64,000 nt of DNA from Limnohabitans sp. (GTDB lineage: Bacteria; Pseudomonadota; Gammaproteobacteria; Burkholderiales; Burkholderiaceae_C). The notes under the pieces are model-generated. The model did no database searches. It was not told the origin of the DNA and was given only the letters and a program-made list of their open reading frames with translations. The translations under genes were made by a program, and so were the position numbers. The stretch's first letter is position 1. The number at the start of each line of letters is the position of its first letter. Of the stretch, positions 27,067-49,086 are shown piece by piece. The stretch is from the NCBI RefSeq assembly GCF_034680285.1, contig NZ_JAXITC010000002.1, forward strand, positions 139,633 to 203,632, given 5' to 3'.

Positions 27067-27074
27067 ATACGGCC

Positions 27075-28031
27075 CTACTTGGACGTGGTGAGGGGGCAAT
27101 CCAATTGTCCATTTCGCGCCCAACGGTCCAGTAGGGGCCATAGCTTCTGCTGTACCTGGACGCCCTTGTTCGTTCGCAAGGCATGGTTGGCGCTCGGCCA
27201 ACGCCACGAGCACAGAACCATAGCTCGATCTTGGCTAGGCTGAGAGAAGGCAAGATACGCTGAGAGAGGCACGTACTCATCGGCATCTCCCCAAACCAGC
27301 AATACAGTCGCTCGACTGGCCCCAAGAGGTTCTGCCAAAGACCAGCTCCACAGGTCACGCCAATACCGCAGACTGCGGCCATGAACAACATGGTCGTCGG
27401 GCCAGGTCGATCGCACCATTGCCTGCAACTCTGTCCACACCTCTTCGCGTCCCATCTTTTGGAGCTGCAGCTGAAAGGTTTGCGCAGGATCCAGTCCGGC
27501 CGCAGACAACAGAACCAGGCCCATTAGCGCGCTCCCACTTTTGGCGGCTAAGGCGGGCAAGATTTCCGCCCCCTCTGAAATTCCCAGCAACAACACGGGC
27601 AATGGCGATGGCTGCTGCAATAAGGACTCCAATGCAACCAAAGCGTCAGCTTGCCAACGGGCCAAACTGTCGTATTGAACGAAGTCGCTTTCACACTGGT
27701 CCGGTGGTGTCGAGACCCAGGGCCGGCTAAAGGGCTTGTGAAAGATCCAAATTTCTGCAGTTTGTAGGCCTTCGAAATACCGCTGGGCCACAGGGCCCAT
27801 ACCTGCGCAACCAGAGCCAGGAATCACGACCAACCGATAAAGCGCTGAACCATGGCTGGCAGCTCGCCACAAAACCTGTACGTACCGATCAGCATGGACC
27901 GTCGGAACTCGATAAATTTTCCAAGCAGCAGGACTATCAGCGGGTTGTGCGACCAGCGGCATTAACAGCGCCATGACCACTGAACACCAACCCAACAAAG
28001 AGCGGCTCGGCTGCATGCCCAACCAATGCAT
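27075..28031 (-). CDS. Exported alpha/beta hydrolase
   Basis: Signal-like N-terminus, IPGSGC, nucleophile GISEG, candidate Asp (GDADE) and His (ANHAL). Confidence 0.7.
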   Translation of the reverse strand: MHWLGMQPSRSLLGWCSVVMALLMPLVAQPADSPAAWKIYRVPTVHADRYVQVLWRAASHGSALYRLVVIPGSGCAGMGPVAQRYFEGLQTAEIWIFHKPFSRPWVSTPPDQCESDFVQYDSLARWQADALVALESLLQQPSPLPVLLLGISEGAEILPALAAKSGSALMGLVLLSAAGLDPAQTFQLQLQKMGREEVWTELQAMVRSTWPDDHVVHGRSLRYWRDLWSWSLAEPLGASRATVLLVWGDADEYVPLSAYLAFSQPSQDRAMVLCSWRWPSANHALRTNKGVQVQQKLWPLLDRWARNGQLDCPLTTSK

Positions 28032-28052
28032 GTTCAACTAGACCTGTAACAA

Positions 28053-28937
28053 TCAACGGAGTATTAACACTTGCTCGGCAGCCGCTGGTTGAGCCTGGCC
28101 TGCAGGAACGGTAACACCTGATTGTGCTGGCCGAAGGCGTTGGGACATGGGGGCGTCCATACCCATCTGAGCAGCCAATTGTTCGTACACGCTTCGCGAG
28201 AGGCTTTGTGATGTTTCTCGCATCACCTTGGCGCGGTTGGGTGGAACAAGGTCGCCACGGGCAGACAACAACTTGGTGTCGTTGCCATTGCCTTGTGCAG
28301 AAAACGCAGCCTTAATTTCCAATGTTTTTGTATTGATCAAAGAGAAATCTGCCAACAGATCCAGTAAGAACTGGTGACTGGAACTACTGGTGCCTTGAAT
28401 CGGCGTCAATTGGTCACGAAATTCAATACTAGAAAGCTGCCCAAACAGAACGTAGTCAGCGCCCGAAAATTCGCCCTTCTTGATGCGAGCAATGATGTCA
28501 TTCACCTCAGGTTGACGCACGGGCTGGGCCATTTTGCCTGTTTGTAATTGTTGCAAGGCCTGCTCGGCTTTGGTGGGTTGGGGGTCTCCCGCGTCAAAGC
28601 CTTTCCCCTGAACCAAACGGAAAGTTGTTCCTTGGATCAATTGACCCTTAATGTCATTGGTGAACGAGCGCAGTTCTCGTTGCTCCAAATAGCTGTATTT
28701 ACCCGCCACATACGTGCCACTGCCACTGTAACTGGCCGTGACGGAATTTCGGTTGGCATTGAGTGAAGCTTTCTCACTGTAGGTGCCTGCTTCAAAATAT
28801 TGAGAAACTGCACGGGTATAAGCCAAGTCTGTCACCGCCACTTTAGGCGGATTTTGCGCCCAAACATAAGGCGTTAAGCAGGCACTGGACAGAGCAAGGA
28901 ACGCCAAAAGAAATTCGCGTTTCATGGTTTGTTTCAT
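28053..28937 (-). CDS. Exported protein of probable CsgG/HfaB/TolB_N-like fold
   Basis: Signal peptide ending VWAQ, then KVAVTDL, GADYVLFGQLSS and DFSLINTKTLEIKAA, an alpha/beta pattern like CsgG-family proteins. Fold assignment is inference. Confidence 0.55.
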   Translation of the reverse strand: MKQTMKREFLLAFLALSSACLTPYVWAQNPPKVAVTDLAYTRAVSQYFEAGTYSEKASLNANRNSVTASYSGSGTYVAGKYSYLEQRELRSFTNDIKGQLIQGTTFRLVQGKGFDAGDPQPTKAEQALQQLQTGKMAQPVRQPEVNDIIARIKKGEFSGADYVLFGQLSSIEFRDQLTPIQGTSSSSHQFLLDLLADFSLINTKTLEIKAAFSAQGNGNDTKLLSARGDLVPPNRAKVMRETSQSLSRSVYEQLAAQMGMDAPMSQRLRPAQSGVTVPAGQAQPAAAEQVLILR

Positions 28938-28950
28938 GTTTACTTCCTTT

Positions 28951-29550
28951 TCAGCGCTTGCTGGTCTTGCGAATTTCTTTTTCTTCTTGCCACTCGATCG
29001 TTCCCTCTTCAACGTCGAACATCTTCAACGTAAATTTATAGAAAACATCCTTGGTGGTGTTGTTTTGCTTGACGATGCTGGTCAGCTCACCTTCAAGGCT
29101 GTACTTGGCTGCGGTCATCTTGCCCACCTTGGCTGTTGTGTTGGACTTATACAGACCGCTTTGATTCTGGCGATTTAACTCGTCAACGCCCGATTGCATC
29201 TCGTTAATAGACCGCGTGAAACGCACCTTGCCCGATTTGACCAATGAAGTCTGTATCGAGTTCATGACGTTGGTGGTATCGATGTATTCGCTGGTTTTGT
29301 TGCGCACGGTGGAAATGGTGACCGTTGGGCGACCTTGGAAAATGCCCGTTTCCAGCAAGCTACCCACCATTTTTTCGGCCATCATTTGCAAATCTGTGGA
29401 GCCAAACTCATTGGTTACCAATTCGACGGCCTTGGCATCACCATAATTGACCTGCCGGTCAAAACGCACCACAGGTGACGTGACTGCTGTGGTGCATGCA
29501 CTGAGCGTGCAAGTCACCAACAGGGCCAAAAAGAGTTGGGAGATTTTCAT
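28951..29550 (-). CDS. lpoB: LpoB-like lipoprotein (TIGR02722/YcfM-like)
   Basis: Lipobox LSAC; FGSTDLQ, VRNKTSEYIDT, ELNRQNQSGLY, GTIEWQEEKEIRK. Confidence 0.8.
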   Translation of the reverse strand: MKISQLFLALLVTCTLSACTTAVTSPVVRFDRQVNYGDAKAVELVTNEFGSTDLQMMAEKMVGSLLETGIFQGRPTVTISTVRNKTSEYIDTTNVMNSIQTSLVKSGKVRFTRSINEMQSGVDELNRQNQSGLYKSNTTAKVGKMTAAKYSLEGELTSIVKQNNTTKDVFYKFTLKMFDVEEGTIEWQEEKEIRKTSKR

Positions 29551-29576
29551 GTCGTTTACTTTCGTCTGTTCCTGAT

Positions 29577-29978
29577 TTATTTCTTTTCGAAGCTCAACTC
29601 CAGACGGAAGTCTGTGGCGTTCGAATGGTGAGCAACGCCTTTGATCGTTTGCTGACCTTGGCCCATGAGCATGATCTGCTTCCAGGATTCGCCATCACCT
29701 ATCTGGTTTCCCACCCCGTCTAACCAGCGATAACGGTAAAACACCATTCGATCGGCAGTCGCCTTGTTGTGCAATTCAGACTGTACGGTCAGGATGTCGT
29801 TGCGGCGTACAACACGCATCTCTGGGATCACCACTTCGGGCGCATCGCCACGAGAAATCAACTTGGCGGACACTGCCGCAGGCGTTACTACTCCGGGATT
29901 TTGAGCCCATACGGGGTAGGAACTGATCGATCCAGCCACGAAGAAAGCAATTAAATTTAATGTTAGATATCGTGTCAT
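29577..29978 (-). CDS. YcfL/DUF1425 family protein
   Basis: SKL-like start of mature region, YRYRWLD-G, WKQIML, IKGVA--SNATDFRLEL; located between COG3014 and lpoB. Confidence 0.75.
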   Translation of the reverse strand: MTRYLTLNLIAFFVAGSISSYPVWAQNPGVVTPAAVSAKLISRGDAPEVVIPEMRVVRRNDILTVQSELHNKATADRMVFYRYRWLDGVGNQIGDGESWKQIMLMGQGQQTIKGVAHHSNATDFRLELSFEKK

Positions 29979-30094
29979 TTGTTATCTTTCGCTAAGCTGA
30001 CCACCATTTGATGGCCATCAGCACTGTATTTTTTATTCCTTGTTCTTGACGATGGATTACCGAAGCAGTGAGGGATGGCCTCGGTTGTTCCTTA

Positions 30095-31465
30095 TCATGG
30101 CAACTGGCCCATAAAAGCCACCGAACTGGTCAAGTTCAGGTTTTCATACAAGCGCAAAGGTACAAGCGCATATTGACCATCGATTTTGATAGGACCAAAA
30201 CTTCGACCTGCAACTGTGATCGTATGCTCTCCTGGCGGCAGGTGAGCACGCGCAAGATAGACTCGGCCAGGTAGCATCCTCCAAATGCGGTCATCGGCTT
30301 GCTCAGTAACCGCGGAGGCAACGGCTCCGATCAAGCCCCCCCATGGTCCTGCATTTTTTTCAAGCTGTTCTTGCATTAGCCCCTTCGCAACAGCACGCGT
30401 GAAACCACGCAAAACCATTCCAGGCATTTCATCTTTGAGGGCGCGACGGGCCATGACGTTCAAGTCCACTACCTTACTCAAAGGCAAGCTGTTATTACCC
30501 CACTGCAAACTATCCAAAATGGGGTCTTTAGAGGGTTGAATCGTAGGGTATGAAATGCTCACTGTCCTTACGCGGCGCCCAGTTGGTACAGGTAAGGTGA
30601 AAGCGCGAGGGATTCGGGCGGGAGCAGTACCCGCTTCCACCACAAACAAAACATCGGTCATGCGCTGTTTACGTTTCCACGTGAAACTGGTGCGATCGTC
30701 GAGGCCACGCAATCCTTCCTCAAGTGCAGGCGCATTTGGGGTCAACTCAATTGCCTTACGGTAGCCCGGCGCAGCCAAACCCGGCTCATTGAGCGCTTCG
30801 TACAAAAACCCGGCCAGATAATGGCTCAATGCGTTTTGATAGCCGTTCTTCAGTGCCAAAACCTCCGGATCATTCAGCGACTCAACGGGGTAACCGTTGA
30901 TTTCCTTACCCTGAACCTGTGCTCCCTTAGCTTTGGCTTCCTCTTCGGCCTTGCCTGTCTCCTTGCTGCGGAATTCGGCAATCACCGCTTCCCGTTCATG
31001 CGTTCGTTTGACATCAACCCGGGCTTTGTCGAGGTCCATCTGCCCAATCCGATTGAGTGCGATACGTGTGGTCAACCACACTTTTTCGTAATCCTGCCCC
31101 TCATAGACTTTCAGCCGCTCACTCACTACGGCAGCTCCCAAAGTACCCAACAGTTTTTGTGGGTTTGTCTTGGCTGCCTCTTCCCACTCGATCACTTTGG
31201 CGTCAGCGGCAAGGTATGCTTGTGTGCTTTGATCAAATTGCTTGTTCAAACGGAGCAACTCGCCTTTCTCCATGTTGTACAGGAGTTCTTTTTTGGCCTC
31301 TTCCGACTTGTTGCGCTCGTCTAGCTGACGCAGGGCCGACTGAAAATCGCCTTGTTGACTTACACCCTGAATTTTTTGAGCCGTCTCATTGTGGCTTTGC
31401 ATGCTCGCACAGCCGGTGAGCAAAACCAATATGGTTATTGCAACAAAGTAGCGTGATTTATTCAT
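30095..31465 (-). CDS. COG3014 family TPR lipoprotein
   Basis: Lipobox LLTGC; helical repeats; YEGQDYEK, YQNALSHYLAGFLYE, ADDRIWRMLP. Confidence 0.8.
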   Translation of the reverse strand: MNKSRYFVAITILVLLTGCASMQSHNETAQKIQGVSQQGDFQSALRQLDERNKSEEAKKELLYNMEKGELLRLNKQFDQSTQAYLAADAKVIEWEEAAKTNPQKLLGTLGAAVVSERLKVYEGQDYEKVWLTTRIALNRIGQMDLDKARVDVKRTHEREAVIAEFRSKETGKAEEEAKAKGAQVQGKEINGYPVESLNDPEVLALKNGYQNALSHYLAGFLYEALNEPGLAAPGYRKAIELTPNAPALEEGLRGLDDRTSFTWKRKQRMTDVLFVVEAGTAPARIPRAFTLPVPTGRRVRTVSISYPTIQPSKDPILDSLQWGNNSLPLSKVVDLNVMARRALKDEMPGMVLRGFTRAVAKGLMQEQLEKNAGPWGGLIGAVASAVTEQADDRIWRMLPGRVYLARAHLPPGEHTITVAGRSFGPIKIDGQYALVPLRLYENLNLTSSVAFMGQLP

Positions 31466-31518
31466 TCTTGACCGTTCAAATTTAAATAATTTATTTTAAT
31501 ACTTGAAAGCACCTGAAC

Positions 31519-33319: not shown

Positions 33320-35527
33320 TCAGGGCTTCCAACGCTTCAGCAGCAATGCGTTGGCCATGACACACACCGAGCTGAGCGCCATGGCTGCGCCCGCCATCAT
33401 GGGGTTGAGGTAACCCAAGGCAGCCATAGGGATGCCCGCCACGTTGTAGGCAAAGGCCCAGAACAGGTTCTGCCGAATCTTGGCCACAGTGCGGGCCGAG
33501 ATATCGAGCGCCGCGCCCACCAAAGCTACATCGCCGCGCATGAGGGTGATGCCCGCCGCGTGCATGGCCACATCGGTGCCATTGCCCATGGCCATGCCCA
33601 CATCGGCGGCGGCCAAGGCGGGCGCGTCGTTCACCCCGTCGCCCACCATGGCGACCACCTTGCCACCCGCACGCAGTTTTTGCACCTGCGCCGACTTGTC
33701 ACCGGGCAGCACATTGGCCAGCACTTCTTCCGCTTCGGGGCGCAAGCCCAAGCGGCGGGCCATGGCTTCGGCAGCGGCTTGGTTGTCGCCCGAAATCATC
33801 ACCAGCTTCAAGCCGCGATCGCGCAACACCGTTAATGCTTGCGCTGCGCCCACTTTGGGTTCATCCCCAAAACCCATGAGCAGCAGGGCATGCAACCCCG
33901 CATCGGTGCGCTCTGCCAAAGCCGACAGGCTTGCGCCTTGCGCCTGCAAAGCGTTGATGTCTGGCTGCCACATGCCGATGTTCAGACCTTCTTCTTGCAG
34001 CCAGCGCAAACTGCCCAGCAACAGCTGTCTACCGTCCACCTTGGCCAACACGCCCTTGCCGGGCACGGCTTGCAGCTCTTGCGCGGTGGGGCCTGACAGG
34101 CCCAGCTTTTCTGCGGCACTCACCACCGCACGCGCCAAGGGGTGTTCGCTGCCACTTTGCACCCGTGCGGCCAAGGCCAACGCCGTTGTTGCATCGTTGC
34201 CGGGCGCAGGCACATGGGCCAGCAAGCGTGGTTGGCCCACGGTGAGCGTGCCGGTTTTGTCAAAGGCCACGGTTTGCACGCGGTGCGCCAACTCCAGCGC
34301 CTGCACGTCTTTGATCAAGATGCCGTGTTTGGCCGCCACACCCGTGCCCGCCATGATGGCCACGGGCGTGGCCAGGCCCAGGGCGCAAGGGCAGGCAATG
34401 ACCAGCACGGCCACCGCGTGGATGAGTGCTGTTTCAAAATCTGAGCCCACGGCCATCCACGCACCCAAAGTGATCAGGGCGATCACCAGCACCAAGGGCA
34501 CAAACACTTCGGCCACTTTGTCCACCAGCCGCTGAATGGGCGCCTTGGCCGCTTGCGCGTCTTCCACCAGGCGGATGATGTGCGAGAGCACGGTTTCGTG
34601 GCCCACGGCTGTCACGCGCATGAGCACGCGCCCTTCGCCATTGATGGAGCCGCCCGTCAAGGCCGCACCCGCAGCCTTGGCCACGGGCAAGGGCTCGCCG
34701 GTCAGCATGGATTCGTCCACCTGGGTTTGGCCTTCGACCAGTTCACCGTCCAGCGGAAAACGCTCCCCAGGCCGCACCACGATAAGGTCGCCCACCAAGA
34801 TTTCGTCCACAGGCACATCGACCTCGCCGTCTTCGCCCAACCAATGGGCTTTGTCCGGGCGCAAGGCGTGCAAGGCACGGATTGCCTCGGTGGTCTGGCG
34901 TTTGGCACGCGCCTCCAGCCATTTGCCCAGCATCACCAAAGTGATCACCACGGCCGAGCCTTCAAAGTACAGATGCGGCGCGTACCCCTCATGCGCGTTA
35001 AGCCACAACCACACCGACAAGGCCCAACCTGCGGTGGTGCCCAAGGACACCAGCAAATCCATGTTGCCCGTGAGCGCGTTCAGCGCATGCCAACCGGCTT
35101 TGTAAAAACGTGCGCCCAACACAAACTGCACAGGCGTGGCCAGTGCAAATTGAACCCAAGCGGGCAGCATCCAATGCTGGCCCCACAGCTCGGCCAACAT
35201 GGGCAAGACCAAGGGCGTGGTCAGAAGCAGACCTACACCCACCGGCATGAAGCCTGCCCAGGGTGATTCGCGGCCTGCATCAGCCTGTGCTTCGGGTGTG
35301 CGAGGCTCGTACCCGGCGTCGCGCACCGCGCGGCGCAGCCGTGCGTCGGTCACGTCAGTGGACGCCACTTCGATGCGGGCCGATTCTGTTGCCAGGTTGA
35401 CCGTGGCGCTGAGCACACCGGGCATTTTTTTCAGGGCTTTTTCGACCCGCGCCACACACGAGGCGCAGGTCATGCCGCCGATGCCGATATCGTAGGTGAG
35501 TGGAGGTTCGTTCTTGATCTGTGTCAT
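33320..35527 (-). CDS. copA: Cu(I)-type P1B heavy-metal ATPase
   Basis: GMTCASC HMA domain, [21 protein letters not shown] and MALSS metal ligands. Confidence 0.93.
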
Positions 35528-35603
35528 GGCATGAAGTCCTGGATGGTCTATGCTCAGACCAGACCCCAACGGGTCGTGTTCAGTTCATTAAAGAGGATGC
35601 ATC

Positions 35604-35801
35604 ATGAACCAAATTTTCACCGTTGAAGGCATGACGTGTGGCCACTGCGAAAAAGCAGTCACCAAAGCTTTATTGTCTTTGGACGCACAAGCCAAGGTTG
35701 TGATCGACCGCACACACAACACCGTGCAAGTGGATTCAGAAAAAAGCCGCGACGTTTTGGCCCAAGCCATTGCCGATGAAGGTTACCGCGTCACCGTTTG
35801 A
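35604..35801 (+). CDS. copZ: Copper chaperone (HMA domain)
   Basis: VEGMTCGHC; divergent from copA. Confidence 0.9.
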   Translation: MNQIFTVEGMTCGHCEKAVTKALLSLDAQAKVVIDRTHNTVQVDSEKSRDVLAQAIADEGYRVTV

Positions 35802-35827
35802 ATTTTTTACCCCCTTAGGAGTTTCAT

Positions 35828-36022
35828 ATGACTAAAAACATTGGCAACATCGAACGCATCATCCGCATTGTGGGTGGTCTTGTATTGATCGCTCTGGCCG
35901 CGACAAGCACTGTGGGCGTTTGGGGCTGGGTGGGCCTGGTGCCATTGGCCACGGGCTTGACGGGTTGGTGCCCGCCTTACAGCTTGCTGGGCATCAACAC
36001 TTGCAAGAATAAAAACATTTGA
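35828..36022 (+). CDS. DUF2892 family membrane protein
   Basis: NIGNIERIIR, GWCPPYSLLGINTC. Confidence 0.88.
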   Translation: MTKNIGNIERIIRIVGGLVLIALAATSTVGVWGWVGLVPLATGLTGWCPPYSLLGINTCKNKNI

Positions 36023-36060
36023 TTTTTAGATCCGGTGTGCTGCTCTGTGATTTTTGAGTT

Positions 36061-36074
36061 TTGACACATGTCAA
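36061..36074 (+). promoter_or_regulatory. FNR-family palindrome TTGAC-ACAT-GTCAA
   Basis: Symmetric arms, about 35 nt upstream of the DUF2189 start. Confidence 0.6.
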
Positions 36075-36108
36075 TCTTTTGCAAGATCACCTTGGGTAAG
36101 CTGTGGTC

Positions 36109-36963
36109 ATGCAAGATCCATCACCCACACCTCCAGTTCACCCACGTCTTGAGCTCTTTTTACCGCCCATATTGCCCCTGCTGAAAGACCAGCCCATGCA
36201 ATGGCTGGCTTTGGGTTTCAAGGATCTGGCACGGTCTCCCCTGCTGAGCATGATGCATGGCTTGGTTTTGGCTTTGCTGGGGGGGCTCATCACTTGGGTG
36301 GCACACGACCGCTTCTGGTTATTGGCAGGCTCCATGTCTGGCTTCATGGTGGTTGCTCCAGTTTTAGCCACCAGTTTGTATGCGATGAGCCGAGCCATGG
36401 AACGGGGTGAAAAAGTTGATTTTCGGCTCTTGATCAACACTTGGACCCAGTGGCAAATGCGCTTGCGGCATGAACCCGACAGTTACTGGAGTCTGATCCG
36501 GTTTGGTTTGTTGTTGGGTCTTGCTGCCACAGGCTGGGTCATCACCTCGGCTGCATTGATCACTTTATTGGCACCTGTACCGATCCACACACCGATCGAT
36601 TTCATCCGCCATGTGGTGTTGGCTAAACAAGGGTATTTGTTTGAAATATGGGTGGGTCTAGGCGCCATGATGGCCTTGCCCATGTTCGCTTCGAGTGTCA
36701 TTTCGATGCCCTTGTTGCTGGACCGCCAAGTCACTGTCATGCAAGCGGTACTGACCAGTTGGAAAGCCGTGCTGACCCATCCTTTTCAGATGACTTTTTG
36801 GGCTTTCCTCATCGTGGGCTTCAGCTTGCTGGGCATTTGTTCATTGTTCTTGGGTTTGATTTTGGTGGTCCCTATGCTTGGCCATGGCAGTTGGCATGCC
36901 TACCGCCACATGGTGGATGTGTCCGATTTGAGTGAACGCCTCACCGAGCAAGGTGAGCGCTGA
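36109..36963 (+). CDS. DUF2189 family integral membrane protein
   Basis: WLALGFKDL, VAPVLATSLYAMSR, ISMPLLLDR, PMLGHGSWHAYR. Confidence 0.85.
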   Translation: MQDPSPTPPVHPRLELFLPPILPLLKDQPMQWLALGFKDLARSPLLSMMHGLVLALLGGLITWVAHDRFWLLAGSMSGFMVVAPVLATSLYAMSRAMERGEKVDFRLLINTWTQWQMRLRHEPDSYWSLIRFGLLLGLAATGWVITSAALITLLAPVPIHTPIDFIRHVVLAKQGYLFEIWVGLGAMMALPMFASSVISMPLLLDRQVTVMQAVLTSWKAVLTHPFQMTFWAFLIVGFSLLGICSLFLGLILVVPMLGHGSWHAYRHMVDVSDLSERLTEQGER

Positions 36964-37172
36964 TGTTCGGATTCAGTGAAGAACAATTTGCTTGGTTTGG
37001 CCTGACCATTGGTGTTGGGGCCTTCATGCTGTACATGCTTTTCATCATTGGTCAGCTGGCCTGGGAATCCAAAGCTGGCAAATTTGGAACTTTTGTGATT
37101 TTTTTAGGCTTGGCTTTTGGCATGCTGGGTTTTGTGGCCAAAGGGGTCATCCAATGGCTGATCGGTGGCTGA
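36963..37172 (+). CDS. DUF2788 family membrane protein
   Basis: YMLFIIGQLAWESKAGKFGTFVIF-GL. Confidence 0.85.
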   Translation: MFGFSEEQFAWFGLTIGVGAFMLYMLFIIGQLAWESKAGKFGTFVIFLGLAFGMLGFVAKGVIQWLIGG

Positions 37173-37457
37173 AAACCGACCGGGATAAACCTGTGGATAA
37201 AAACCATGGAATCTTATGGTTATCCACAGCTTGGTCTGCCATGGCCAAGTTGTTCATTTTGACGTGACACCAAAAAATCAGACTCACACACACCCTTGAA
37301 AGCAAGATAAGTCTATGTCACTGCTCAATAAACATGACTTGTGCACAGATCTGGCCTTTGCTTACTACTACGACTATTTAAAGATATAAAACTAAAGAGA
37401 GATAGCAAAGAAGAAGTGCGCTGTTAAGATTTGCATCTTTCCATCCCAGTCTGCACC
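37173..37457. other. Putative chromosomal replication origin (oriC)
   Basis: Perfect DnaA boxes TGTGGATAA (37192-37200) and TTATCCACA (37220-37228); degenerate TTGTGCACA (37339-37347); GATC, GGCC; DnaA-trio run TTA-CTA-CTA-CGA-CTA (37362-37376); then an AT-rich tract. parS/parAB lie 8-13 kb to the right. Confidence 0.75.
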
Positions 37458-38228
37458 ATGGCGATCGTTTCAGAAGACCCTTCTCAACCCTGTTACGACA
37501 TCAAAAGCGCTGATTTGTCTTTGTTGGCTTTGTTACTCAAGACCACTGACATCACTGCTGTTTCATTGGCATTGAAGCAACAATTGTCTGAGACACCTGG
37601 TTTTTTTGACCAAGATCCTGTGGTGGTGGATGTGAGTGCTTTGGGTCTAGACGCCGATCAAACACTGGACTTGCCATCATTGATGGCTGTTTTGCGAGAG
37701 CATCAATTGGTTCCCTTGGCCATCAAAGGTGCCCACGAGGCACTTTTATTGCAAGCCAAGGGGCTGGGCTTGGTAGATGCTTCAGATGCCCGAATTCGGC
37801 GTTCTGTGGCTGTTGAACAGCCATCGATGCCGGAGACTGCACCTGCCCCCATCGTTTCACAGCCTGCCACGGTAGCCCCATTGGGCGCGATGGTCATTGA
37901 TAAACCTTTGCGATCAGGTCAGCAGGTGTATGCCAAAGGGCGAGACCTGATTGTTTTGGCCATGGTCAACGCAGGTGCTGAAGTGATTGCCGACGGGCAT
38001 ATCCATGTTTATGGTGCATTGCGTGGCAAAGCCATTGCAGGTGCGCGGGGCAACACACAAGCGCAAATCTTTGCCCAAGTGATGGAGCCTGAGTTGATTT
38101 CCATCGCGGGTGTTTACCGCACCAGCGAAAATGCTTTACCCAAGGATGTTCTGGGCCAAGTGGCCCAGGTGTGTTTGCAATCTGGCCCTGATGGGGACAA
38201 ATTGCTGATCACAGCCCTCAAGTCCTAA
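37458..38228 (+). CDS. minC: Septum site-determining protein MinC
   Basis: PLRSGQQVYA, VNAGAEVIADGHIHVYGALRGKAIAGA. The ORF track starts at TTG 37431. Confidence 0.95.
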   Translation: MAIVSEDPSQPCYDIKSADLSLLALLLKTTDITAVSLALKQQLSETPGFFDQDPVVVDVSALGLDADQTLDLPSLMAVLREHQLVPLAIKGAHEALLLQAKGLGLVDASDARIRRSVAVEQPSMPETAPAPIVSQPATVAPLGAMVIDKPLRSGQQVYAKGRDLIVLAMVNAGAEVIADGHIHVYGALRGKAIAGARGNTQAQIFAQVMEPELISIAGVYRTSENALPKDVLGQVAQVCLQSGPDGDKLLITALKS

Positions 38229-38258
38229 TTTTTCAATCGAGTCCAAGAAAGTTTTTCC

Positions 38259-39074
38259 ATGGCAAAAATCGTTGTTGTGACCTCTGGCAAAGGCGGCGTG
38301 GGTAAAACCACGACCAGTGCCAGTTTCGCTACCGGCCTGGCCCTCAGGGGCTTCAAAACCGCTGTCATTGACTTTGATGTGGGTCTGCGCAATCTGGACT
38401 TGATCATGGGCTGTGAACGCCGCGTGGTGTATGACCTGATCAATGTCATCCAGGGCGAAGCCAACCTGAACCAAGCCCTCATCAAAGACAAGCAGTGCGA
38501 GAACTTGTATGTGTTGGCAGCTTCGCAAACCCGTGACAAAGACGCTTTGTCGCAAGAAGGTGTTGAAAAGGTATTGAACGACTTGAGCGGCATGGGCTTC
38601 GAGTACATCGTGTGCGATTCGCCTGCAGGTATCGAGACGGGTGCCTTGATGGCCATGCACTTTGCCGATGAGGCTTTGGTGGTGACCAACCCCGAAGTGT
38701 CTTCGGTGCGCGATTCCGACCGCATTTTGGGCATGTTGGGCAGCAAGACCAAACGCGCCATTGAGGGATCTGAACCCATCAAAGAGCACTTGCTCATCAC
38801 CCGTTACAACCCCAACCGGGTGGAAGAAGGACAGATGTTGTCCTTGCAAGACATTCAAGACATTCTGCGCATCAAGTTGTTGGGCGTGATTCCTGAAAGC
38901 GAAAACGTGTTGCAGGCTTCTAACCAGGGCACACCCGCGATTCACATGGCCAACAGCGATGTGTCGGAAGCCTACAAAGATGTGATCGATCGCTTCTTGG
39001 GTGAAGACAAGCCGATGCGCTTCATCGAAGCAGAAAAGCCTGGTTTCTTCAAACGTTTGTTTGGAGGCAAGTGA
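38259..39074 (+). CDS. minD: Septum site-determining ATPase MinD
   Basis: TSGKGGVGKTT, DFDVGLRNLD, DSPAGIE, C-terminal amphipathic helix GFFKRLFG. Confidence 0.98.
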   Translation: MAKIVVVTSGKGGVGKTTTSASFATGLALRGFKTAVIDFDVGLRNLDLIMGCERRVVYDLINVIQGEANLNQALIKDKQCENLYVLAASQTRDKDALSQEGVEKVLNDLSGMGFEYIVCDSPAGIETGALMAMHFADEALVVTNPEVSSVRDSDRILGMLGSKTKRAIEGSEPIKEHLLITRYNPNRVEEGQMLSLQDIQDILRIKLLGVIPESENVLQASNQGTPAIHMANSDVSEAYKDVIDRFLGEDKPMRFIEAEKPGFFKRLFGGK

Positions 39075-39077
39075 GCC

Positions 39078-39338
39078 ATGTCCTTTCTTTCCTTCCTGCT
39101 GGGTGAAAAGAAGAAAACCGCCAGCGTTGCCAAAGAGCGCTTGCAGATCATCTTGGCCCATGAGCGCAGTGGTCGTAACGTTGCCGAGCCCGATTACTTG
39201 CCTGATTTGCAGCGTGAGTTGGTGGCGGTGATCAGCAAGTACATCAAGATCAATCCCAACGACATCAAAGTCAATTTGGAACGTCAGGACAATCTGGAAG
39301 TGCTCGAAGTCAAAATCGAACTGCCTGACGCACGCTGA
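39078..39338 (+). CDS. minE: Cell division topological specificity factor MinE
   Basis: [35 protein letters not shown]. Confidence 0.97.
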
Positions 39339-39365
39339 TTTTTTTCGGTCCAACCGCACATGAAC

Positions 39366-39394
39366 CATCGCCTTGAAAAAGGCGATGTTTTTTT
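39366..39394 (+). terminator. Rho-independent terminator of minCDE
   Basis: Stem CATCGCCTT / loop GAAA / AAGGCGATG, followed by T7. Confidence 0.85.
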
Positions 39395-39409
39395 ATGGGT
39401 GTCCTTGTT

Positions 39410-42400
39410 TTACTGAGCGCTCAGTGAAGCCCACAGAGTCCGTGCTGCACGGATGTTGCGTTCTTTGACGTGACCAAAACCTTTGATGTTCTCAGGCACG
39501 CGTGCCACATTGACCGCATGGGTGTGTGAATCGGCTGTCAAGTTCTCCAGCACGTCATCGATGTGTTGCACATATTCGCGTATCAAAGCACGCTCGGTTT
39601 GGCGCTCTTCGGTTTTGCCAAAGTAGTCCAGCTTCGTGCCGCGTAGTCCTTTGAATTTGGCCAAAATTTTGAACCCTGTCAGCATGATCGGTCCAAACTT
39701 GCGCTTGACCAATTCGCCTTGGCTGTTGTGTTTGGCCCAAAGTGGCGGGGCAAGGTGGAAGTGCACTTTGAAGTCGCCTTCAAAGCTATTTTGAATGCGC
39801 TCCATGAAGCCTGTTTGGGTGTGTAGACGGGCGACTTCGTATTCATCCTTGTAGGCCATCAAGCGGTACAGCTGACGAGCCACGGTGTCGCTGAGCAGGG
39901 TCTTGCCCAAAGGTGCTTCGGTGGCCTGAACGCGTGCCACGATGCTTTGGTAAAGCTGTGCGTAAGTGCTGTCTTGGTAGTCGGTCAAACGTGCCATACG
40001 GTCGGCTATCAGGTCTTCTAAAGAATCGCGTTTTTTGAACTGGATCACCTGTTTGGGGTGCATTTGTGCCATCAGCGCATCCAACTGGTGCGCGGCGTGG
40101 CGTCCCCATTCAAAAGCGGCCAGGTTGTTTTTGACTTGCACATCGTTGAGCTCGATGGCCCGCACCAAAGACTCGCGGTGCAAAGGCACCCAACCCTTTT
40201 GCCAGGCGTAACCCAGGATCATGGGGTTGACGTAAATTGTGTCGCCCATCAGTTTTTTGGCCAAAGCATCCGCATCAAAAGCACCGACGCCTTCCACGCC
40301 GACTTGCGCTGTGATTTCGGCCACGCATTGCTCGGCCGGGTTTTGCCAGTTGCCGTTTTTCACAAAAGCGGCAGTGGGTGTGCTGTTGCTGTTCAGGGCT
40401 ACATGGGTGCGGCCCGCGCGCATGCGCAAAGTGGTTTCTTTGGATGCGCTGACGATCGGGTCACAACCGATGATCAAGTCGGCTGCGGCCATGCTCACAC
40501 GCGTGGTGCGGATCTCGTCTTGGTGGTTGGCCAACAAGATGTGGCTCCAGGTGGCGCCGCCTTTTTGGGCCAAGCCTGCAGAGTCTTGTGTGACGATGCC
40601 TTTGCCTTCCATGTGCGCAGCCATGCCCAGCAGCTGGCCGATGGTGATGACGCCAGTGCCGCCCACACCGGCCACCACCATGCCCCAGGGTTCGTGGATG
40701 GTGGGCAGAGTAGGTTCTGGCAATGCGCCCAGGCTGGCTGGGTTGATGCTGGTGGTGGTCGAAGTGGCTTTCTTTTTGAAAGTGCCGCCTTCCACCGTGA
40801 CAAAGCTGGGGCAAAAGCCTTTGAGGCAGCTGGTGTCTTTGTTGCAGGTGCTTTGGTTGATGGTGCGCTTGCGGCCCAAAGGGGTTTCAAGAGGTTCGAC
40901 CGACAAGCAGTTGGACTGCACACCGCAGTCGCCACAGCCTTCGCACACTTCTTCGTTGATCATCACGCGCACGGCGGGGTCGACCATGGTGCCGCGTTTG
41001 CGGCGGCGGCGTTTTTCGGTGGCGCAGGTCTGGTCGTAAATGATGACGGTGGTGCCTTTGATTTCGCGCATTTCGCGTTGGATGCGGTCAAGTTCGTCGC
41101 GGTGGAACACACGCACGCCATCCACTAAAGCCACGCCGTCGTACTTCTCTGGCTCGTCGGTCACCACCACAATTCGCCCTGCACCTTCCGCCTTCATGCT
41201 CATGGCGATTTGCACCACACTGTGGCCTTCGGCACGCTCACCCACAGGCTGGCCACCGGTCATGGCCACCGCGTCGTTGTACAAAATCTTGTAGGTGATG
41301 TTCACACCCGAAGCCACGCTTTGGCGCACGGCCAAGATGCCGCTGTGGAAATAGGTGCCGTCGCCGATGTTGGCAAAAATGTGCTGGTCGGTGCAGAAGG
41401 GTTGCTGGCCCGTCCATGGCACGCCTTCGCCGCCCATTTGGGTGAAGCCCGTGGTGCTGCGGTCCATCCAGAGGCTCATGAAGTGGCAGCCAATGCCCGC
41501 CATGGCGCGTGAACCTTCGGGCACCTTGGTGGAGGTGTTGTGGGGGCAGCCTGAACAGAACCAGGGAGTGCGGTCGGCGGCCGCGCCCAAGGTCAATGTT
41601 TGCAAGGACTTTTCTTTGGCGTCCAGCACAGCCAGGTGCGCGTCGATGCTGGCCGTCGTGTCGGCATCCACGCCCAGTTTTTTCAGGCGTTTGGCAATGG
41701 CCCTTGCAATCAAGGCTGGGGTCAGGTCGGCGTTGGCCCGCAGCAATGTGCGTTGGGTAGGATTGGGCGTCGACCATTCGCCGCCTGAGGTGTCGCCATC
41801 GGCTTCGTCGAATTTGCCCACGATGGCGGGGCGTACATCGTCGCGCCAGTTGTACAGCTCTTCCTTGAGTTGGTACTCGATGACTTGGCGCTTTTCTTCG
41901 ACCACCAAAATCTCGCGCAATCCGGTGGCGAATTCGCGGGTGGTGTGCGATTCAAGTGGCCAGACCACGCCCACCTTGTGCACCCGGATGCCTAGGCGCT
42001 GGCAGGTGGCGTCGTCCAGACCCAGATCGAGCAAGGCTTGTCGCGTGTCGTTGTAGGCCTTGCCGCTGGCGATCAGGCCAAACCGATCGTTGGGCCCCTG
42101 GATGACGTTGTGGTTGAGCTTGTTGGCGCGGATGTAGGCGAGAGCCGCATACCACTTGTAGTCGAACAAACGCGCTTCTTGTTCCAGCGCAGTGTCTGGC
42201 CAGCGGATGTGCACGCCACCGGGCGGCATCACAAATTCGGGCAGCACGATTTGCACGCGCTCGGGGTCGATGTACGCGGTGGCGCTCGACTCGACAATTT
42301 CCTGGATGGTCTTCATGCCCGACCAGATGCCCGCAAAACGGCTGAGCGCGAGGGCGTGCAAGCCTTGGTCCAGGATGTCTTGCACGCTGGCCGGGAAAAA

Positions 42401-42946: not shown

Positions 42947-43065
42947 GGTCTGTCCTGCGACTGAAATAGAAATCACAGTGTAGAGCGTGCCTGTCGACAA
43001 GTGCTTGCTTTCGGAGACAGGATTTGCCCTATGATTTGAAAGAATCTTGCTCAAAGAGGCCTATT

Positions 43066-43533
43066 TTGGAAACATTGGATAAATTTGACTGGGCGATCCT
43101 GAACGAATTGCAAAAGGACGGACGGCTGACCAATGCCGAACTGGCGCAGCGTGTGGGTTTGTCTGCAGCGCCATGTTGGCGTCGCGTGCGGGCGCTGGAG
43201 GAGTCGGGCGTCATCAAAGGCTACCGCGCGGAGATCGATCGACAAAAGGTGGGGCTGGATGTGCTGGCCTTTGTGCGCTTGGATGCTGAACGCAATCGGG
43301 GCGACATCACGCGCCAACTGGAAGAGGCGATTCGCATGATTCCCGAGGTCGTTTCATGCCATTACATCAGCGGCACCGGCACCTTTGAGCTGCAGGTGGT
43401 CAGCAAAGACCTGAACACCTTCAGCCAGTTTGCCCGTGATGTGTTGATCAACCTGCCCAATGTGAAAGACCTGCACACCAGCTTTTCACTGGGCGAGGTC
43501 AAGGCGGCAGGGGCCTTGCCATTGCGTTTTTGA
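43066..43533 (+). CDS. Lrp/AsnC family regulator
   Basis: LDKFDWAILNELQKDGR, GLSAAPCWRRV; TTG start after GAGG; divergent from the oxidoreductase. Confidence 0.9.
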   Translation: METLDKFDWAILNELQKDGRLTNAELAQRVGLSAAPCWRRVRALEESGVIKGYRAEIDRQKVGLDVLAFVRLDAERNRGDITRQLEEAIRMIPEVVSCHYISGTGTFELQVVSKDLNTFSQFARDVLINLPNVKDLHTSFSLGEVKAAGALPLRF

Positions 43534-43650
43534 GTCTGTGTGGAATCTGGCACCTGCCTGTAAAATAAGCAGCTTCAACCGACCCCGTGGCAGGGCGGTC
43601 TCCGGCGCAGGCGGTGCCTATTTTTGGCCTTTATTCAAGGCGGACTTCTC

Positions 43651-45633
43651 ATGCTTTACCCTCAAGAATTCGATGTGATCGTGGTTGGTGGCGGCCATGC
43701 CGGAACCGAAGCCGCGCTCGCGTCCGCCCGCATGGGCTGCAAAACGCTCTTGCTCAGCCACAACATCGAGACGCTGGGGCAGATGAGCTGCAACCCCAGC
43801 ATTGGCGGCATTGGCAAGGGGCACTTGGTCAAAGAGGTCGATGCTTTGGGCGGTGCCATGGCCTTGGCGACCGATGAGGGCGGCATCCAGTTCCGCATTC
43901 TCAACAGCTCCAAAGGTCCAGCCGTGCGCGCCACCCGCGCCCAGGCCGACCGCATTTTGTACAAGGCCGCCATCCGCCGCATGTTGGAAAACCAGCCCAA
44001 CCTGTGGCTGTTCCAGCAGGCCGTGGACGACCTGATGGTTGAAGGTGACCGCGTGGTCGGCGCTGTGACGCAAGTCGGCATCCGTTTCCGTTCGCGCACC
44101 GTGGTGCTGACGGCGGGCACTTTCCTGGATGGCAAGATCCATGTGGGTTTGCAGAATTACGCGGCGGGCAGGGCAGGCGATCCGCCGGCGGTCAGTCTGT
44201 CGGCGCGGCTCAAGGAACTGAAGCTGCCGCAAGGCCGCTTGAAGACCGGCACACCACCGCGTCTGGATGGCCGGACTATTGACTTTTCCAAATGCTTGGA
44301 ACAACCCGGCGACGGTGTGCCCGGCGGCATGAACCCCGAGGGCGGGGTGCCGGTGTTCAGCTTCATGGGCAACGCAGGCATGCACCCGCAGCAAGTGCCG
44401 TGCTGGATCACCCACACCAACGAGCGCACACATGACATCATCCGCTCCGGTTTTGACCGCAGCCCCATGTTCACCGGCAAGATCGAGGGCGTGGGCCCGC
44501 GCTATTGCCCGAGTGTGGAGGACAAGATCAACCGCTTTGCCGACAAGGACAGCCACCAGATTTTTCTGGAGCCCGAAGGTCTGACGACGCACGAGTACTA
44601 CCCCAACGGCATCTCGACCAGCTTGCCGTTTGACATCCAGTACGACCTGGTGCGCTCGATGAAGGGCCTGGAAAACTGCCACATCCTGCGCCCCGGCTAT
44701 GCGATCGAATATGACTACTTTGACCCGCGGGCTTTGAAGAACAGTTTTGAGACGCGCCAGATCAATGGCCTCTTCTTTGCTGGGCAGATCAATGGCACCA
44801 CCGGTTACGAAGAAGCTGCTGCACAGGGATTGTTTGCGGGCATCAATGCCGCGCTGCAATGCCGGGGCGAAGCAGCTTGGACGCCAGCGCGCGACCAAGC
44901 TTATTTAGGCGTATTGGTGGACGACTTGGTGACCCAGGGTGTGACCGAGCCCTACCGCATGTTCACCAGCCGCGCCGAGTTCCGTCTGCAGCTGCGCGAA
45001 GACAACGCCGATGCGCGCCTGACCGAAGTGGGCCGGCAAATGGGCTTGGTGGACGACGCCCGCTGGGATGCCTTCAGCCGCAAACGCGATGCTGTTTCAC
45101 GTGAAACAGAGCGTCTCAAATCGGTTTGGGTGAACCCACGGAACTTGCCTGCCGAAGAATCGGTTCGTGTCTTGGGCAAAGCCATTGAGCACGAACACAA
45201 CCTGTTTGATTTGCTGCGAAGACCGAATGTGAGTTATCCGGCCCTGATGACGCTCGACGGCGGTCGCATGGCCAGCGCAGATGTTTCACGTGAAACATTG
45301 GGCGACCTGAGCCCCTCGGTGATTGAGCAGGTGGAAATTGCCGCCAAGTATTCCGGCTATATCGACCGTCAAAAAGGGGAGGTGGAGCGGGCTGCGTTTT
45401 ACGAGCACCTGCGCTTGCCCGAGAGTCTGGACTACATGCAGGTGTCGGCCTTGTCGATCGAGGCGCGCCAAAAGCTGGCCAAACACCGCCCCGAAACCCT
45501 GGGCCAGGCCTCTCGCATTTCGGGCATCACGCCTGCCAGCGTGTCCCTGCTCTTGATCCACCTGAAAAAGGGTGGCTTCAAAGGCTTCATGCAAGCCACA
45601 GAAGATCGTGTTGAGATGGGCGTGCAGGCATGA
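43651..45633 (+). CDS. mnmG: tRNA uridine 5-carboxymethylaminomethyl modification enzyme
   Basis: [48 protein letters not shown]. Confidence 0.98.
45093..45108. promoter_or_regulatory. parS site 1 (within mnmG)
   Basis: Perfect TGTTTCACGTGAAACA. Confidence 0.9.
45282..45297. promoter_or_regulatory. parS site 2 (within mnmG)
   Basis: Perfect TGTTTCACGTGAAACA (extends to an 18-bp palindrome). Confidence 0.9.
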
Positions 45634-46277
45634 GCGTGAATTTGGAGGCGGGCCTGCGCTCGGGTGCGCAAGCCTTGGGCTTGAGTCTGCCGGAGGGGCA
45701 AATCCAGCATTTGCTGGGCTACGTGGCACTCATCCAAAAATGGAACAAGGTCTATAACCTCACGGCGCTGCGCGACCCGGCGGACATGCTCACGCACCAC
45801 CTGTTGGACAGTTTGACCGCCATCGCCCCCTTGCGCCGGCACACTCAAGGCCAATCCGTCCGGGTGCTGGATGTCGGTTCGGGTGGTGGTTTGCCCGGGG
45901 TGGTGTTGGCCATTTGCATGCCCGAGCTGAATGTGAGCTGTGTGGACACCGTGGCCAAAAAAGCCGCGTTTGTGCAGCAGGTGGCCGTGAGCCTGAAGCT
46001 GCCCAACTTGCGTGGCCTGCATGCGCGGGTCGAATCCCTGACCGATCCGTACCAGGTCATTTGCTCCCGGGCCTTTGCCTCCTTGCCAGACTTTGTGACC
46101 TGGTCGCGTTCGGCTTTGGCCGTGGGCGGTGTCTGGATGGCCATGAAAGGCAAGCACCCGCAAGACGAAATCGATGCTTTGCCAGCGGACGTCAAAGTGT
46201 TTCACGTGGAACCATTGACGGTGCCAGACTTGGACGTCGAGCGTTGCATGGTCTGGTTGCGACCCCAAAACGACTGA
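45630..46277 (+). CDS. rsmG: 16S rRNA m7G527 methyltransferase
   Basis: [37 protein letters not shown]. Confidence 0.97.
46198..46213. promoter_or_regulatory. parS site 3 (within rsmG)
   Basis: TGTTTCACGTGGAACC, one deviation from consensus. Confidence 0.8.
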
Positions 46278-46285
46278 ATCGCTGT

Positions 46286-46301
46286 TGTTTCACGTGAAAC
46301 A
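46286..46301. promoter_or_regulatory. parS site 4 (intergenic, after rsmG)
   Basis: Perfect TGTTTCACGTGAAACA. Confidence 0.9.
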
Positions 46302-46378: not shown

Positions 46379-46993
46379 ATGTTTGGTATTTCGGATTACG
46401 GCGCGTTTTCTGCGGCCTTTGTCCTGTTGTTGTTTTTACCCGGCCCAGGCAATTTGGCCTTGATCAGCTCGGCCAGCAAGGGTGGTTTGTCGGGTGGTCT
46501 GGCCTCGGTGCTCGGCCTGTTGGTGGGTGATCAGGTCTTGTTGTGGCTGACAGTGGCAGGTTTGGCGGCTGTGCTCACAGCTTTGCCACCCGTGTTTTTG
46601 GCATTGCAGTGGGCGGGAGCGGCCTATTTGACGTGGTTGGGTTTCAAAATGTTTACCGCTCAACCCGGAGAAGGCCCCAGCATCCAAATCACGCCCGGGC
46701 ATTACTTTCGCGAAACCTTGTTCATCACCTTGCTCAACCCCAAGGCGATCATGTTTTACTTGGCTTTTTTTCCTCAGTTCATTGACCCGGTCAACCATCA
46801 AGGCTGGATCACCTTTGCAGCGATGGCGCTGACCATTGTTGTTTTGGGCTTTATCTATTGTTTTGGGGTGGTGCTGGTGACGCATTTCATGGCCGAGCGG
46901 ATTCGTGCCCACCCCAAGCTTTCGAGTTTTTTGCAAAAAATGGCAGGGGTGTGTTTGATTGGCTTTGGTTTGAAGATGGTTTTCACCAAATAA
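46379..46993 (+). CDS. LysE/RhtB family exporter (LeuE-like), copy 1
   Basis: PGPGNLAL, GAAYL-WLG, TLLNPKAIMFYLAFFPQF. Confidence 0.9.
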   Translation: MFGISDYGAFSAAFVLLLFLPGPGNLALISSASKGGLSGGLASVLGLLVGDQVLLWLTVAGLAAVLTALPPVFLALQWAGAAYLTWLGFKMFTAQPGEGPSIQITPGHYFRETLFITLLNPKAIMFYLAFFPQFIDPVNHQGWITFAAMALTIVVLGFIYCFGVVLVTHFMAERIRAHPKLSSFLQKMAGVCLIGFGLKMVFTK

Positions 46994-47029
46994 TGGCCAA
47001 CGTGCCCGTGTGCTTTTTGAAAGTCTCTC

Positions 47030-47647
47030 ATGTTCTTTGGCATCTCTGACTACAGTGCTTTTGTCGCCGCCATCGTCTTGTTTTTGGCCATTCCTGGGCC
47101 GGGTAATTTGGCGCTTATCACCTCCACCAGCAAAGGGGGTGTGTCCGGCGGTTTGATGGCCACCTTGGGGGTGATCGCAGGCGATCAGGTCTTGATGTGG
47201 TTGGCGGTGGCTGGGGTGGCGACGGTACTGGCCACTTACCCTGCTGCGTTTGCTGCCATTCAGTGGCTGGGCGCCGCTTACTTGGCTTGGCTGGGCTTCA
47301 AAATGCTGTCGGCCAAGCCCGGCGATGCCCCTGTGTTGAACATCCGGCCTCGGCAGTATTTTCAGCAGGCGCTGGCCATCACCTTGCTCAACCCCAAAGC
47401 GATTGTTTTTTACATGGCGTTCTTCCCTTTGTTTGTGGACCCACAAACTCATTTGGGAATGATCAGCTTTGGCGTGATGGCCGCCACCATTGCGGCACTG
47501 ACCTTTTTGTACGGGCTGGGCATGACACTGCTGACGCACCACTTGGCCGAGCGCATGCGTGCAAACCCCGTGGTGGGCCGCGTGCTGGAAAAAGTGGCGG
47601 GCCTTTTCTTGGTGGGTTTTGGCCTCAAACTGGCCTTGTCCAAATAG
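47030..47647 (+). CDS. LysE/RhtB family exporter (LeuE-like), copy 2
   Basis: PGPGNLAL, TLLNPKAIVFYMAFFPLF. Confidence 0.9.
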   Translation: MFFGISDYSAFVAAIVLFLAIPGPGNLALITSTSKGGVSGGLMATLGVIAGDQVLMWLAVAGVATVLATYPAAFAAIQWLGAAYLAWLGFKMLSAKPGDAPVLNIRPRQYFQQALAITLLNPKAIVFYMAFFPLFVDPQTHLGMISFGVMAATIAALTFLYGLGMTLLTHHLAERMRANPVVGRVLEKVAGLFLVGFGLKLALSK

Positions 47648-47702
47648 AGCGCACGCTGCCACCGCTGACTGTTGTACGAATTGATTAACCTGAGCGCAAT
47701 TT

Positions 47703-48473: not shown

Positions 48474-48493
48474 GCTTTGGCACTTTTCGAACC

Positions 48494-49084: not shown

Positions 49085-49086
49085 CC

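Follow-up and report, generated by a model that had tools for sequence, protein, structure and literature searches.

The chromosomal origin of Escherichia coli is located in the gidA-mioC spacer, 42 kb from dnaA. It measures about 245 bp and displays its unwinding element beside the R1 box; boxes sharing one orientation form the left subcomplex, and an oppositely oriented high-affinity box occupies the far end. The basal unwinding system (BUS) of Bacillus subtilis is composed of DnaA boxes 6 and 7, DnaA-trios and an AT-rich region (Richardson et al. 2019, PMC6669920; Pelliciari et al. 2021, PMC8287927; Pelliciari et al. 2023, PMC10721633). Box 7 was termed R1-type; such a box stands directly before a G+C-rich spacer, and 5'-CTA-3' is the complement of the 3'-GAT-5' trio (PMC8235120). 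Searches for BUS have allowed the box up to two mismatches and the spacer 0-16 nt (mode 13), and have required three or more trios as well as an AT-rich region (PMC8287927). A tandem box pair is not obligatory, since it is present in just 57% of predicted BUS.

Within the order Burkholderiales, the skew transition of chromosome 1 of Cupriavidus metallidurans CH34 lies ~90 kb from dnaA-dnaN-gyrB and adjoins a 213-nt stretch with three perfect DnaA boxes, and the region upstream of dnaA displays one perfect box (Janssen et al. 2010, PMC2864759). This genome paper was the only close precedent found in the literature, where no described origin from the Comamonadaceae or linked to minCDE was encountered; a preprint on dual origins in Halomonadaceae does not mention the Comamonadaceae.

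The locus considered here belongs to a Limnohabitans of the LimC lineage (Comamonadaceae), whose MinC shares 94% identity with its counterpart in Limnohabitans sp. G3-2. The window, i.e. the whole stretch of 64 kb that was analysed, corresponds to C2:139633-203632 on a contig of 307 kb (C2), from an assembly of 26 contigs and 3.16 Mb (genome label G000). Positions without a contig name refer to the window. According to the comparisons presented below, the segment 37180-37420, upstream of minC, is very probably the functional chromosomal oriC of this Limnohabitans, of conventional DnaA type and with a basal-unwinding layout. The features of the locus and its neighbourhood are as follows.

36103-36963, plus strand: DUF2189 gene (membrane protein, Pfam), left neighbour.
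36963-37172, plus strand: DUF2788 gene (membrane protein, Pfam), left neighbour.
37173-37457: candidate oriC spacer, 285 bp, non-coding, between the DUF2788 gene and minC.
37180-37188, minus strand: weak DnaA-box-like 9-mer CCGGGATAA, oriented like box 1 and 3 nt upstream of it.
37192-37200, minus strand: DnaA box 1, perfect, reading TGTGGATAA on the plus strand.
37201-37219: spacer of 19 nt between the inverted boxes.
37220-37228, plus strand: DnaA box 2 TTATCCACA, perfect, oriented like box 3 toward the unwinding element.
37226-37253, plus strand: terminator-like hairpin with T-rich tail, overlapping the end of box 2.
37247-37320, plus strand: middle region with three conserved blocks, AAGTTGTTCAT (37247-37257), CACACA (37286-37292) and AAGTCTATGTCA (37309-37320).
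37339-37347, plus strand: DnaA box 3 TTGTGCACA, two mismatches, adjoining the unwinding element.
37348-37361: spacer GATCTGGCCTTTGC between box 3 and the trios, 14 nt, G+C-rich at its 3' end.
37362-37376, plus strand: DnaA-trio array TTA CTA CTA CGA CTA, i.e. 3'-AAT GAT GAT GCT GAT-5' on the minus strand.
37377-37395: AT tract TTTAAAGATATAAAACTAA, the presumed first strand-opening site.
37396-37419: purine-rich tract AGAGAGATAGCAAAGAAGAAGTGC, partly conserved across genera (alignment A2, columns 228-260).
37421-37429, plus strand: candidate minCDE promoter, extended -10 (TG-T-TAAGAT) TGTTAAGAT, 29 nt before the minC ATG.
37458-38228, plus strand: minC, ATG at 37458 (Pfam MinC_N, MinC_C), right neighbour.
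38259-39074, plus strand: minD (Pfam CbiA/ParA).
39078-39338, plus strand: minE (Pfam MinE).
45093, 45282, 46198 and 46286 (to 46301): four parS sites, inside and just after gidA/gidB.
47703-48473: parA (Pfam).
48985-50004: parB (Pfam).

Two perfect, oppositely oriented DnaA boxes had been reported in the first-pass annotation of this DNA and are indeed present at 37192-37200 and 37220-37228. The window displayed exactly two occurrences of TTATCCACA, namely boxes 1 and 2, against 0.16 expected from shuffles, and the spacer held its top-scoring DnaA-box cluster. Sixteen perfect boxes were counted in the 3.16-Mb genome, and two within 400 bp of one another were encountered only here. Together with box 3 and several degenerate sites, they make up a box cluster in non-coding DNA, as is looked for in an oriC. 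In 23 aligned sequences from 11 genera, boxes and trios displayed conservation values of 0.90-1.00, against 0.47-0.57 for the stretches between them. Box 2 was invariant (23/23) and box 1 had a mean majority fraction of 0.97. The 19 nt separating them were kept in length and free in sequence, except for an A-run after box 1 (column conservation 0.56). Box 3, which corresponds to R1 of E. coli and to box 7 of B. subtilis, was always found 118-119 nt after box 2 in relatives, where it mostly reads TTGTCCACA or TTATCCACA (zero or one mismatch; conservation 0.91).

Weaker sites were recognized on both sides of this framework. The 9-mer upstream of box 1 differs from TGTGGATAA by three mismatches here and by one in several Limnohabitans loci; the A..A(A) at its 3' end was invariant in alignment A2, and it may function as a DnaA site. 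The three blocks of the middle region were conserved at 0.77-0.85, well above the intervening stretches, and in some genera they are plus-orientation boxes with two to three mismatches (e.g. TTGTCCCCA in G159). This region is a candidate for low-affinity DnaA oligomerisation, to which DnaA would bind. The hairpin at the end of box 2 was not significant (one found against 0.7 expected in shuffles), and its pairing, followed by eye in alignment A2, was not conserved outside Limnohabitans; it may end the DUF2189-DUF2788 transcript inside the origin.

The succession of box, GC tract, 3'-GAT-5' repeats and AT-rich tract, previously interpreted as a BUS, agrees with the search rules in box 3 (two mismatches), in the 14-nt spacer and in three trios with conserved middle base (TTA CTA CTA). 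All elements of that description were found at the places given, with one qualification: the "GC tract" was only 57% G+C, and the fourth trio (CGA) is imperfect, being devoid of the conserved middle base. Among relatives this base is G, C or T, and several genera display four perfect CTA units. The orientation is also that of a BUS, 5'-TTNTNCACA-3' being located 5' of 5'-CTA-3' on the same strand with the box pointing at the trios. An R1-type box before CTA on one strand is likewise the order of R1 and the right 13-mer in E. coli. In this genome and in relatives alike, reading by eye revealed no second box-like 9-mer at 3 nt or less from box 3 that could form a tandem pair before the trios. 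Resemblance to the B. subtilis type thus concerns the order of box, short G+C-rich spacer, 3'-GAT-5' repeats and AT tract, whereas the element described here, known from its sequence, differs by a single trio-adjoining box, by the two mismatches of this box and by the non-consensus fourth trio.

Conservation of the trio array reached 0.90 over 11 genera, regardless of the downstream gene. The 14-nt spacer was nearly constant in length, with one to three extra bases before the first CTA in a few relatives, and its sequence conservation was 0.57. Counting both strands, the whole genome contained 17 runs of three consecutive [CT]TA units, and the one at this site alone had a suitably oriented box (two mismatches at the most) ahead of it by no more than 16 nt. 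The AT tract stood out as well: the 20-mer from 37375 was 90% A+T (top 0.04% of the window), and the 40-mer from 37365 was the second least stable duplex in the 64 kb, with a dG of -43.1 against a mean of -61.6 (sd 3.9), i.e. 4.7 sd below. An easily melted AT-rich element, as expected in an oriC, is therefore found directly after the boxes.

As stated in the first-pass annotation, dnaA, dnaN and rpmH were absent from the 64 kb. Their cluster (C2:26.6-29.7 kb) was located on the same contig, where the skew is still falling, 148 kb away from the element:

C2:26634-27761: dnaN.
C2:27893-29308, minus strand: dnaA.
C2:29531-29662: rpmH.

Cumulative GC skew and the flanks of dnaA had been proposed as checks, and both favoured the element. 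The skew of C2 reached its minimum at C2:174891 (window position 35259), a point that lies 146 kb away from dnaA and 1.9 kb to the left of the element. The skew of C2 was cleanly V-shaped, no other contig displayed a deep V minimum, and a terminus-like maximum was found in C1; the skew was read on 26 contigs, at some end of which a second switch may lie. The rpmH-dnaA spacer contained one perfect box, and the dnaA-dnaN spacer was limited to 131 bp and devoid of the origin module, so that the dnaA flanks were rejected as origin. Two further candidates were discarded: the spacer 35570-36102, at the exact switch of skew and gene orientation, harbored copZ-like and YgaP-like genes and no boxes, and the stretch preceding gidA (43054-43623), which corresponds to the origin location in E. 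coli, was without a box cluster. The copZ-like metallochaperone and YgaP-like membrane protein genes (35604-36022) occupy what had seemed an empty spacer.

The relation between module, skew and dnaA was also considered in four other genomes:

G122 (closed): module 1.1 kb from the local skew minimum, 139 kb from dnaA.
G294: module 3.3 kb from the local skew minimum, 592 kb from dnaA.
G129 (closed, weak skew): module 14 kb from the local skew minimum, 112 kb from dnaA.
G018 (same genus): module 49 kb from the skew minimum and inside a flat zone, 183 kb from dnaA, which lies on the rising arm.

In these four, dnaA was 98-592 kb away from the minimum or the module. With G000 included, the module rather than dnaA marked the skew switch in five genomes out of five. 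Assembler word depth was read in two metagenome runs, which accounted for 98% of sampled words. It amounted to ~350 at the origin, 345 at the terminus and 440 at C2:287-307 kb in run X1, and to ~360, 286 and 388, respectively, in run X2; variation between regions exceeded any origin-terminus trend and was attributed to co-existing strains.

The Limnohabitans spacer aligned at 70-89% identity throughout, and all loci of the LimC type displayed boxes at -266, -238 and -119 and trios at -96 from the minC start. No such element preceded minC in Hydrogenophaga, Polaromonas, Giesbergeria, Caenimonas, Comamonas and Limnohabitans of the LimA type. A pattern search uncovered the inverted pair of perfect boxes in ten other genera, nine of which showed the 19-nt spacing, and the same succession followed in register downstream: box 3 at 118-119 nt, ~14 nt, CTACTAC(N)ACTA and the AT tract. 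A sequence-only model of this ~240-bp module (R1, 245 positions), whose match extends to 37419 here, detected the module in 295 of the 301 family genomes and in all 150 genera. Matches were mostly single, sometimes two to four per genome, and one module was found in G000; conservation and an essentially single-copy state in relatives are what an oriC should display. Outside the family, about a third of the genomes from other families of Burkholderiales gave weaker, often full-length matches.

Genes flanking the module varied. It was found next to dnaA/dnaN in G159 and G056, between copZ and minC in G165, between copA and copZ in G067, beside copA in G167 and G076, and among unrelated genes in others. 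Distances to dnaA were determined in 38 genomes with both on one contig, a non-random set of high-scoring matches on long contigs. The module was located in the dnaA-dnaN spacer in nine of these and 14-592 kb away in 27, while two wrapped the sequence start; the three Limnohabitans among the 38 displayed distances of 148-183 kb. Detachment from dnaA is hence the majority state (about three quarters) in the measured family genomes. The earlier view of an origin detached from dnaA was correct as to the fact (148 kb). Such a distance is nothing unusual in the family, and within the order it had already been published for CH34 (PMC2864759). Likeness to that chromosome consists in a skew switch with a stretch of boxes away from dnaA and one box at dnaA, within the same order; CH34, compared here by its description, belongs to another family and differs in its flanking genes, and no trios or unwinding element were described for it.

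In the nine genomes with the module between dnaA and dnaN, the arrangement resembles the dnaA-oriC-dnaN (incC) type of B. subtilis. Here, in contrast, the 131-bp dnaA-dnaN spacer is empty, the module lies 148 kb off and no incA/B-like cluster stands upstream of dnaA. The AT tract adjoined dnaN in the three genomes of this kind with flanks read (G159, G056, G232), as it does in B. subtilis. Like E. coli oriC, the candidate origin is detached from dnaA, lies near gidA, has a comparable size and displays an R1-type box by the unwinding element, same-orientation boxes and an opposite high-affinity box at the far end. It differs in being 6 kb from gidA, with minCDE, the ferredoxin oxidoreductase gene and lrp in between. 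No 13-mer repeats of the E. coli type were seen in the alignment, and no match to the IHF consensus was noticed when the sequence was read by eye. A single, non-conserved GATC (37348-37351) indicates that there is no GATC cluster of the Dam/SeqA type here.

Some genomes of the family harbored two to four full-length modules (L205:1091-1820; L207:2016-2544; L206:1725-1953 and 11984-12209; L208:14537-14762). Tandem copies ~300-500 bp apart were found in G076, both copies of G232 were included in the dnaA-dnaN spacer, and the two copies of G214 faced outward, 10 kb apart. In G171, one module immediately preceded dnaA, and a second one, at a distance of 14 kb, immediately preceded minCDE. Such multi-copy modules may represent intermediate steps in the relocation of an origin, or else dual origins.

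Rightward of minCDE, the window contains a large ferredoxin oxidoreductase gene on the minus strand, lrp, gidA, gidB, two lysE genes, parA, a serine hydrolase gene and parB. gidA, gidB, the four parS sites, parA and parB were found 6-13 kb from the candidate origin. Proximity of parS, which had been invoked earlier, was borne out by these four sites (45093-46301), three of them perfect and one with one or two mismatches, against 0.17 expected. The gidA-gidB-parA-parB run was interrupted (46379-50004) by two LysE-type exporter genes between gidB and parA and a serine hydrolase gene between parA and parB, and parB was without an adjoining parS, all four being inside or just after gidA/gidB. Leftward, past the DUF2189 gene, follow the small copZ-like and YgaP-like genes and, on the other strand, a copA-type ATPase gene. 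In several other genera, copA/copZ likewise adjoin the module on its left. G+C content was low (0.49-0.54 against ~0.60) in two stretches: 35000-39500, which is the origin region itself, and 27000-31500, which carries LpoB-like and DUF1425 genes, includes, in a divergent spacer at 31464, the duplex with the lowest stability in the window and may be acquired DNA.

The extended -10 TGTTAAGAT at 37421-37429, ~25 nt right of the AT tract, is probably the minCDE promoter, judging from its recurrence: TGTTAAGAT or TGGTAAGAT was found in 36 of the 37 Limnohabitans loci, and it was also encountered upstream of minC in G165, G018 and G171. As its distance from the AT tract differs in the latter genomes, origin and minCDE promoter would share the spacer as separate elements. 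The first-pass annotation was right in placing both in one spacer, while the promoter is likely distinct from the origin and located to the right of the AT tract. A consensus promoter scan gave no sigma-70 match. The minC transcription start could not be read from the metatranscriptome contigs, which were short, of low depth and from related strains, and the RNA depth of minD and minE was probably inflated by other organisms. An apparent RNA "skip" from 37157 to 37361 in X25 was discarded, as it most likely reflects a divergent strain aligned only at its conserved ends.

Three other explanations of the locus were weighed. The position directly upstream of minC, the recurrence of minCDE adjacency in three genera (G000, G165, G171) and the possibility of reading TTACTA and TATAAA in the trio/AT tract as weak -35 and -10 sequences with a 17-nt spacing could suggest a DnaA-controlled operator or promoter of minCDE, coupling Min expression to the cell cycle, with the true origin elsewhere within a few kb of the skew switch. 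This is very unlikely. The trio/AT block is equally conserved before dnaN, copA, a response regulator and other genes, and such differing flanks indicate that it is not simply the minC promoter; it is missing before minC in the genera listed above and in LimA Limnohabitans, whereas the separate, conserved extended -10 travels with minC. The negative promoter scan, and the lack of any other box cluster within 33-40 kb of the window, point in the same direction. Hardly conceivable is a chance match in which the two boxes would be the inverted repeat of a transcription terminator beside an AT-rich promoter: although the hairpin overlaps box 2 and the box pair can form a stem in this strain, only 0.16 boxes were expected in shuffles, and conservation of the module extends over 150 genera. 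Between two invariant boxes, the 19-nt spacer is free to vary in sequence and so does not belong to a conserved stem, and the terminator reading of the inverted boxes was rejected for this lack of conserved pairing.

The densest near-consensus DnaA-box cluster of the genome was located elsewhere, between a DegP-type protease gene and lepA (C7:77154-77482, i.e. L150:10154-10482), with five boxes in 330 bp, of which one is perfect and the other four each carry a single mismatch. A datA/DARS-like role in titrating or reactivating DnaA is possible, as is that of a promoter under DnaA control. The existence of this cluster, the fragmentation of the assembly into 26 contigs and the occurrence of two to four modules in some family genomes, which implies that not every copy need be active, leave some room for the idea that the element upstream of minC is itself a DnaA-binding regulatory locus (datA/DARS-like) or a retired origin, with initiation at the C7 cluster or at a site hidden at a contig end. 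This is nevertheless unlikely: the skew of C7 was uniformly negative and displayed no switch at 77 kb, for which reason the cluster was rejected as an alternative origin, model R1 found a single module in G000, and the module coincided with skew minima in five genomes. No trio and AT unwinding part is known in datA or DARS, which also counts against a regulatory locus. The distance of 49 kb between module and skew minimum in G018, the two mismatches of box 3 and the imperfect fourth trio speak against an oriC. The skew minimum 1.9 kb away, the presence of the module in 295 of 301 family genomes and its fixed geometry support the chromosomal origin originally proposed for this spacer.

By analogy with E. 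coli and B. subtilis, initiation at this probable oriC would start with binding of DnaA, through domain IV, to the two perfect boxes and box 3. ATP-DnaA would then fill the weaker conserved sites between boxes 2 and 3, which share one orientation. An oligomer seeded at box 3 is expected to cross the 14-nt spacer onto the minus strand of the CTA repeats (the 3'-GAT-5' trios); by stretching this strand it would open the AT tract at 37377-37395, where the helicase would be loaded. The oppositely facing box 1 and its weak neighbour may accommodate a second DnaA subcomplex, in the manner of the right half of oriC in E. coli.

Comparison of flanking genes provided evidence that the module changed gene neighbourhood repeatedly while dnaA-dnaN stayed intact. 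A possible, still tentative reading is that the ~240-bp module is a relocatable cassette, which left the ancestral dnaA-dnaN spacer by duplication and loss, with dnaA-dnaN remaining intact and the multi-copy genomes representing intermediates. If so, its resting places would include the copA/copZ-minCDE junction, genomes with two to four intact copies may fire from more than one origin, and in Limnohabitans the closeness of the unwinding element to the minCDE promoter (~25 nt) could link Min expression with initiation.

Knowing where the origin lies sets the replichore map of a genus that is abundant among freshwater bacterioplankton. Natural growth rates of such bacteria are often estimated from origin-to-terminus coverage ratios, and with dnaA taken as the anchor the error in origin position would be ~150 kb here and could reach ~600 kb in relatives. 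Model R1 is a compact, family-wide origin consensus, which locates oriC in almost any genome or metagenome bin of the Comamonadaceae. The uncoupling of origin and dnaA in most members of the family, together with the multi-copy minority, forms a useful data set on origin movement.
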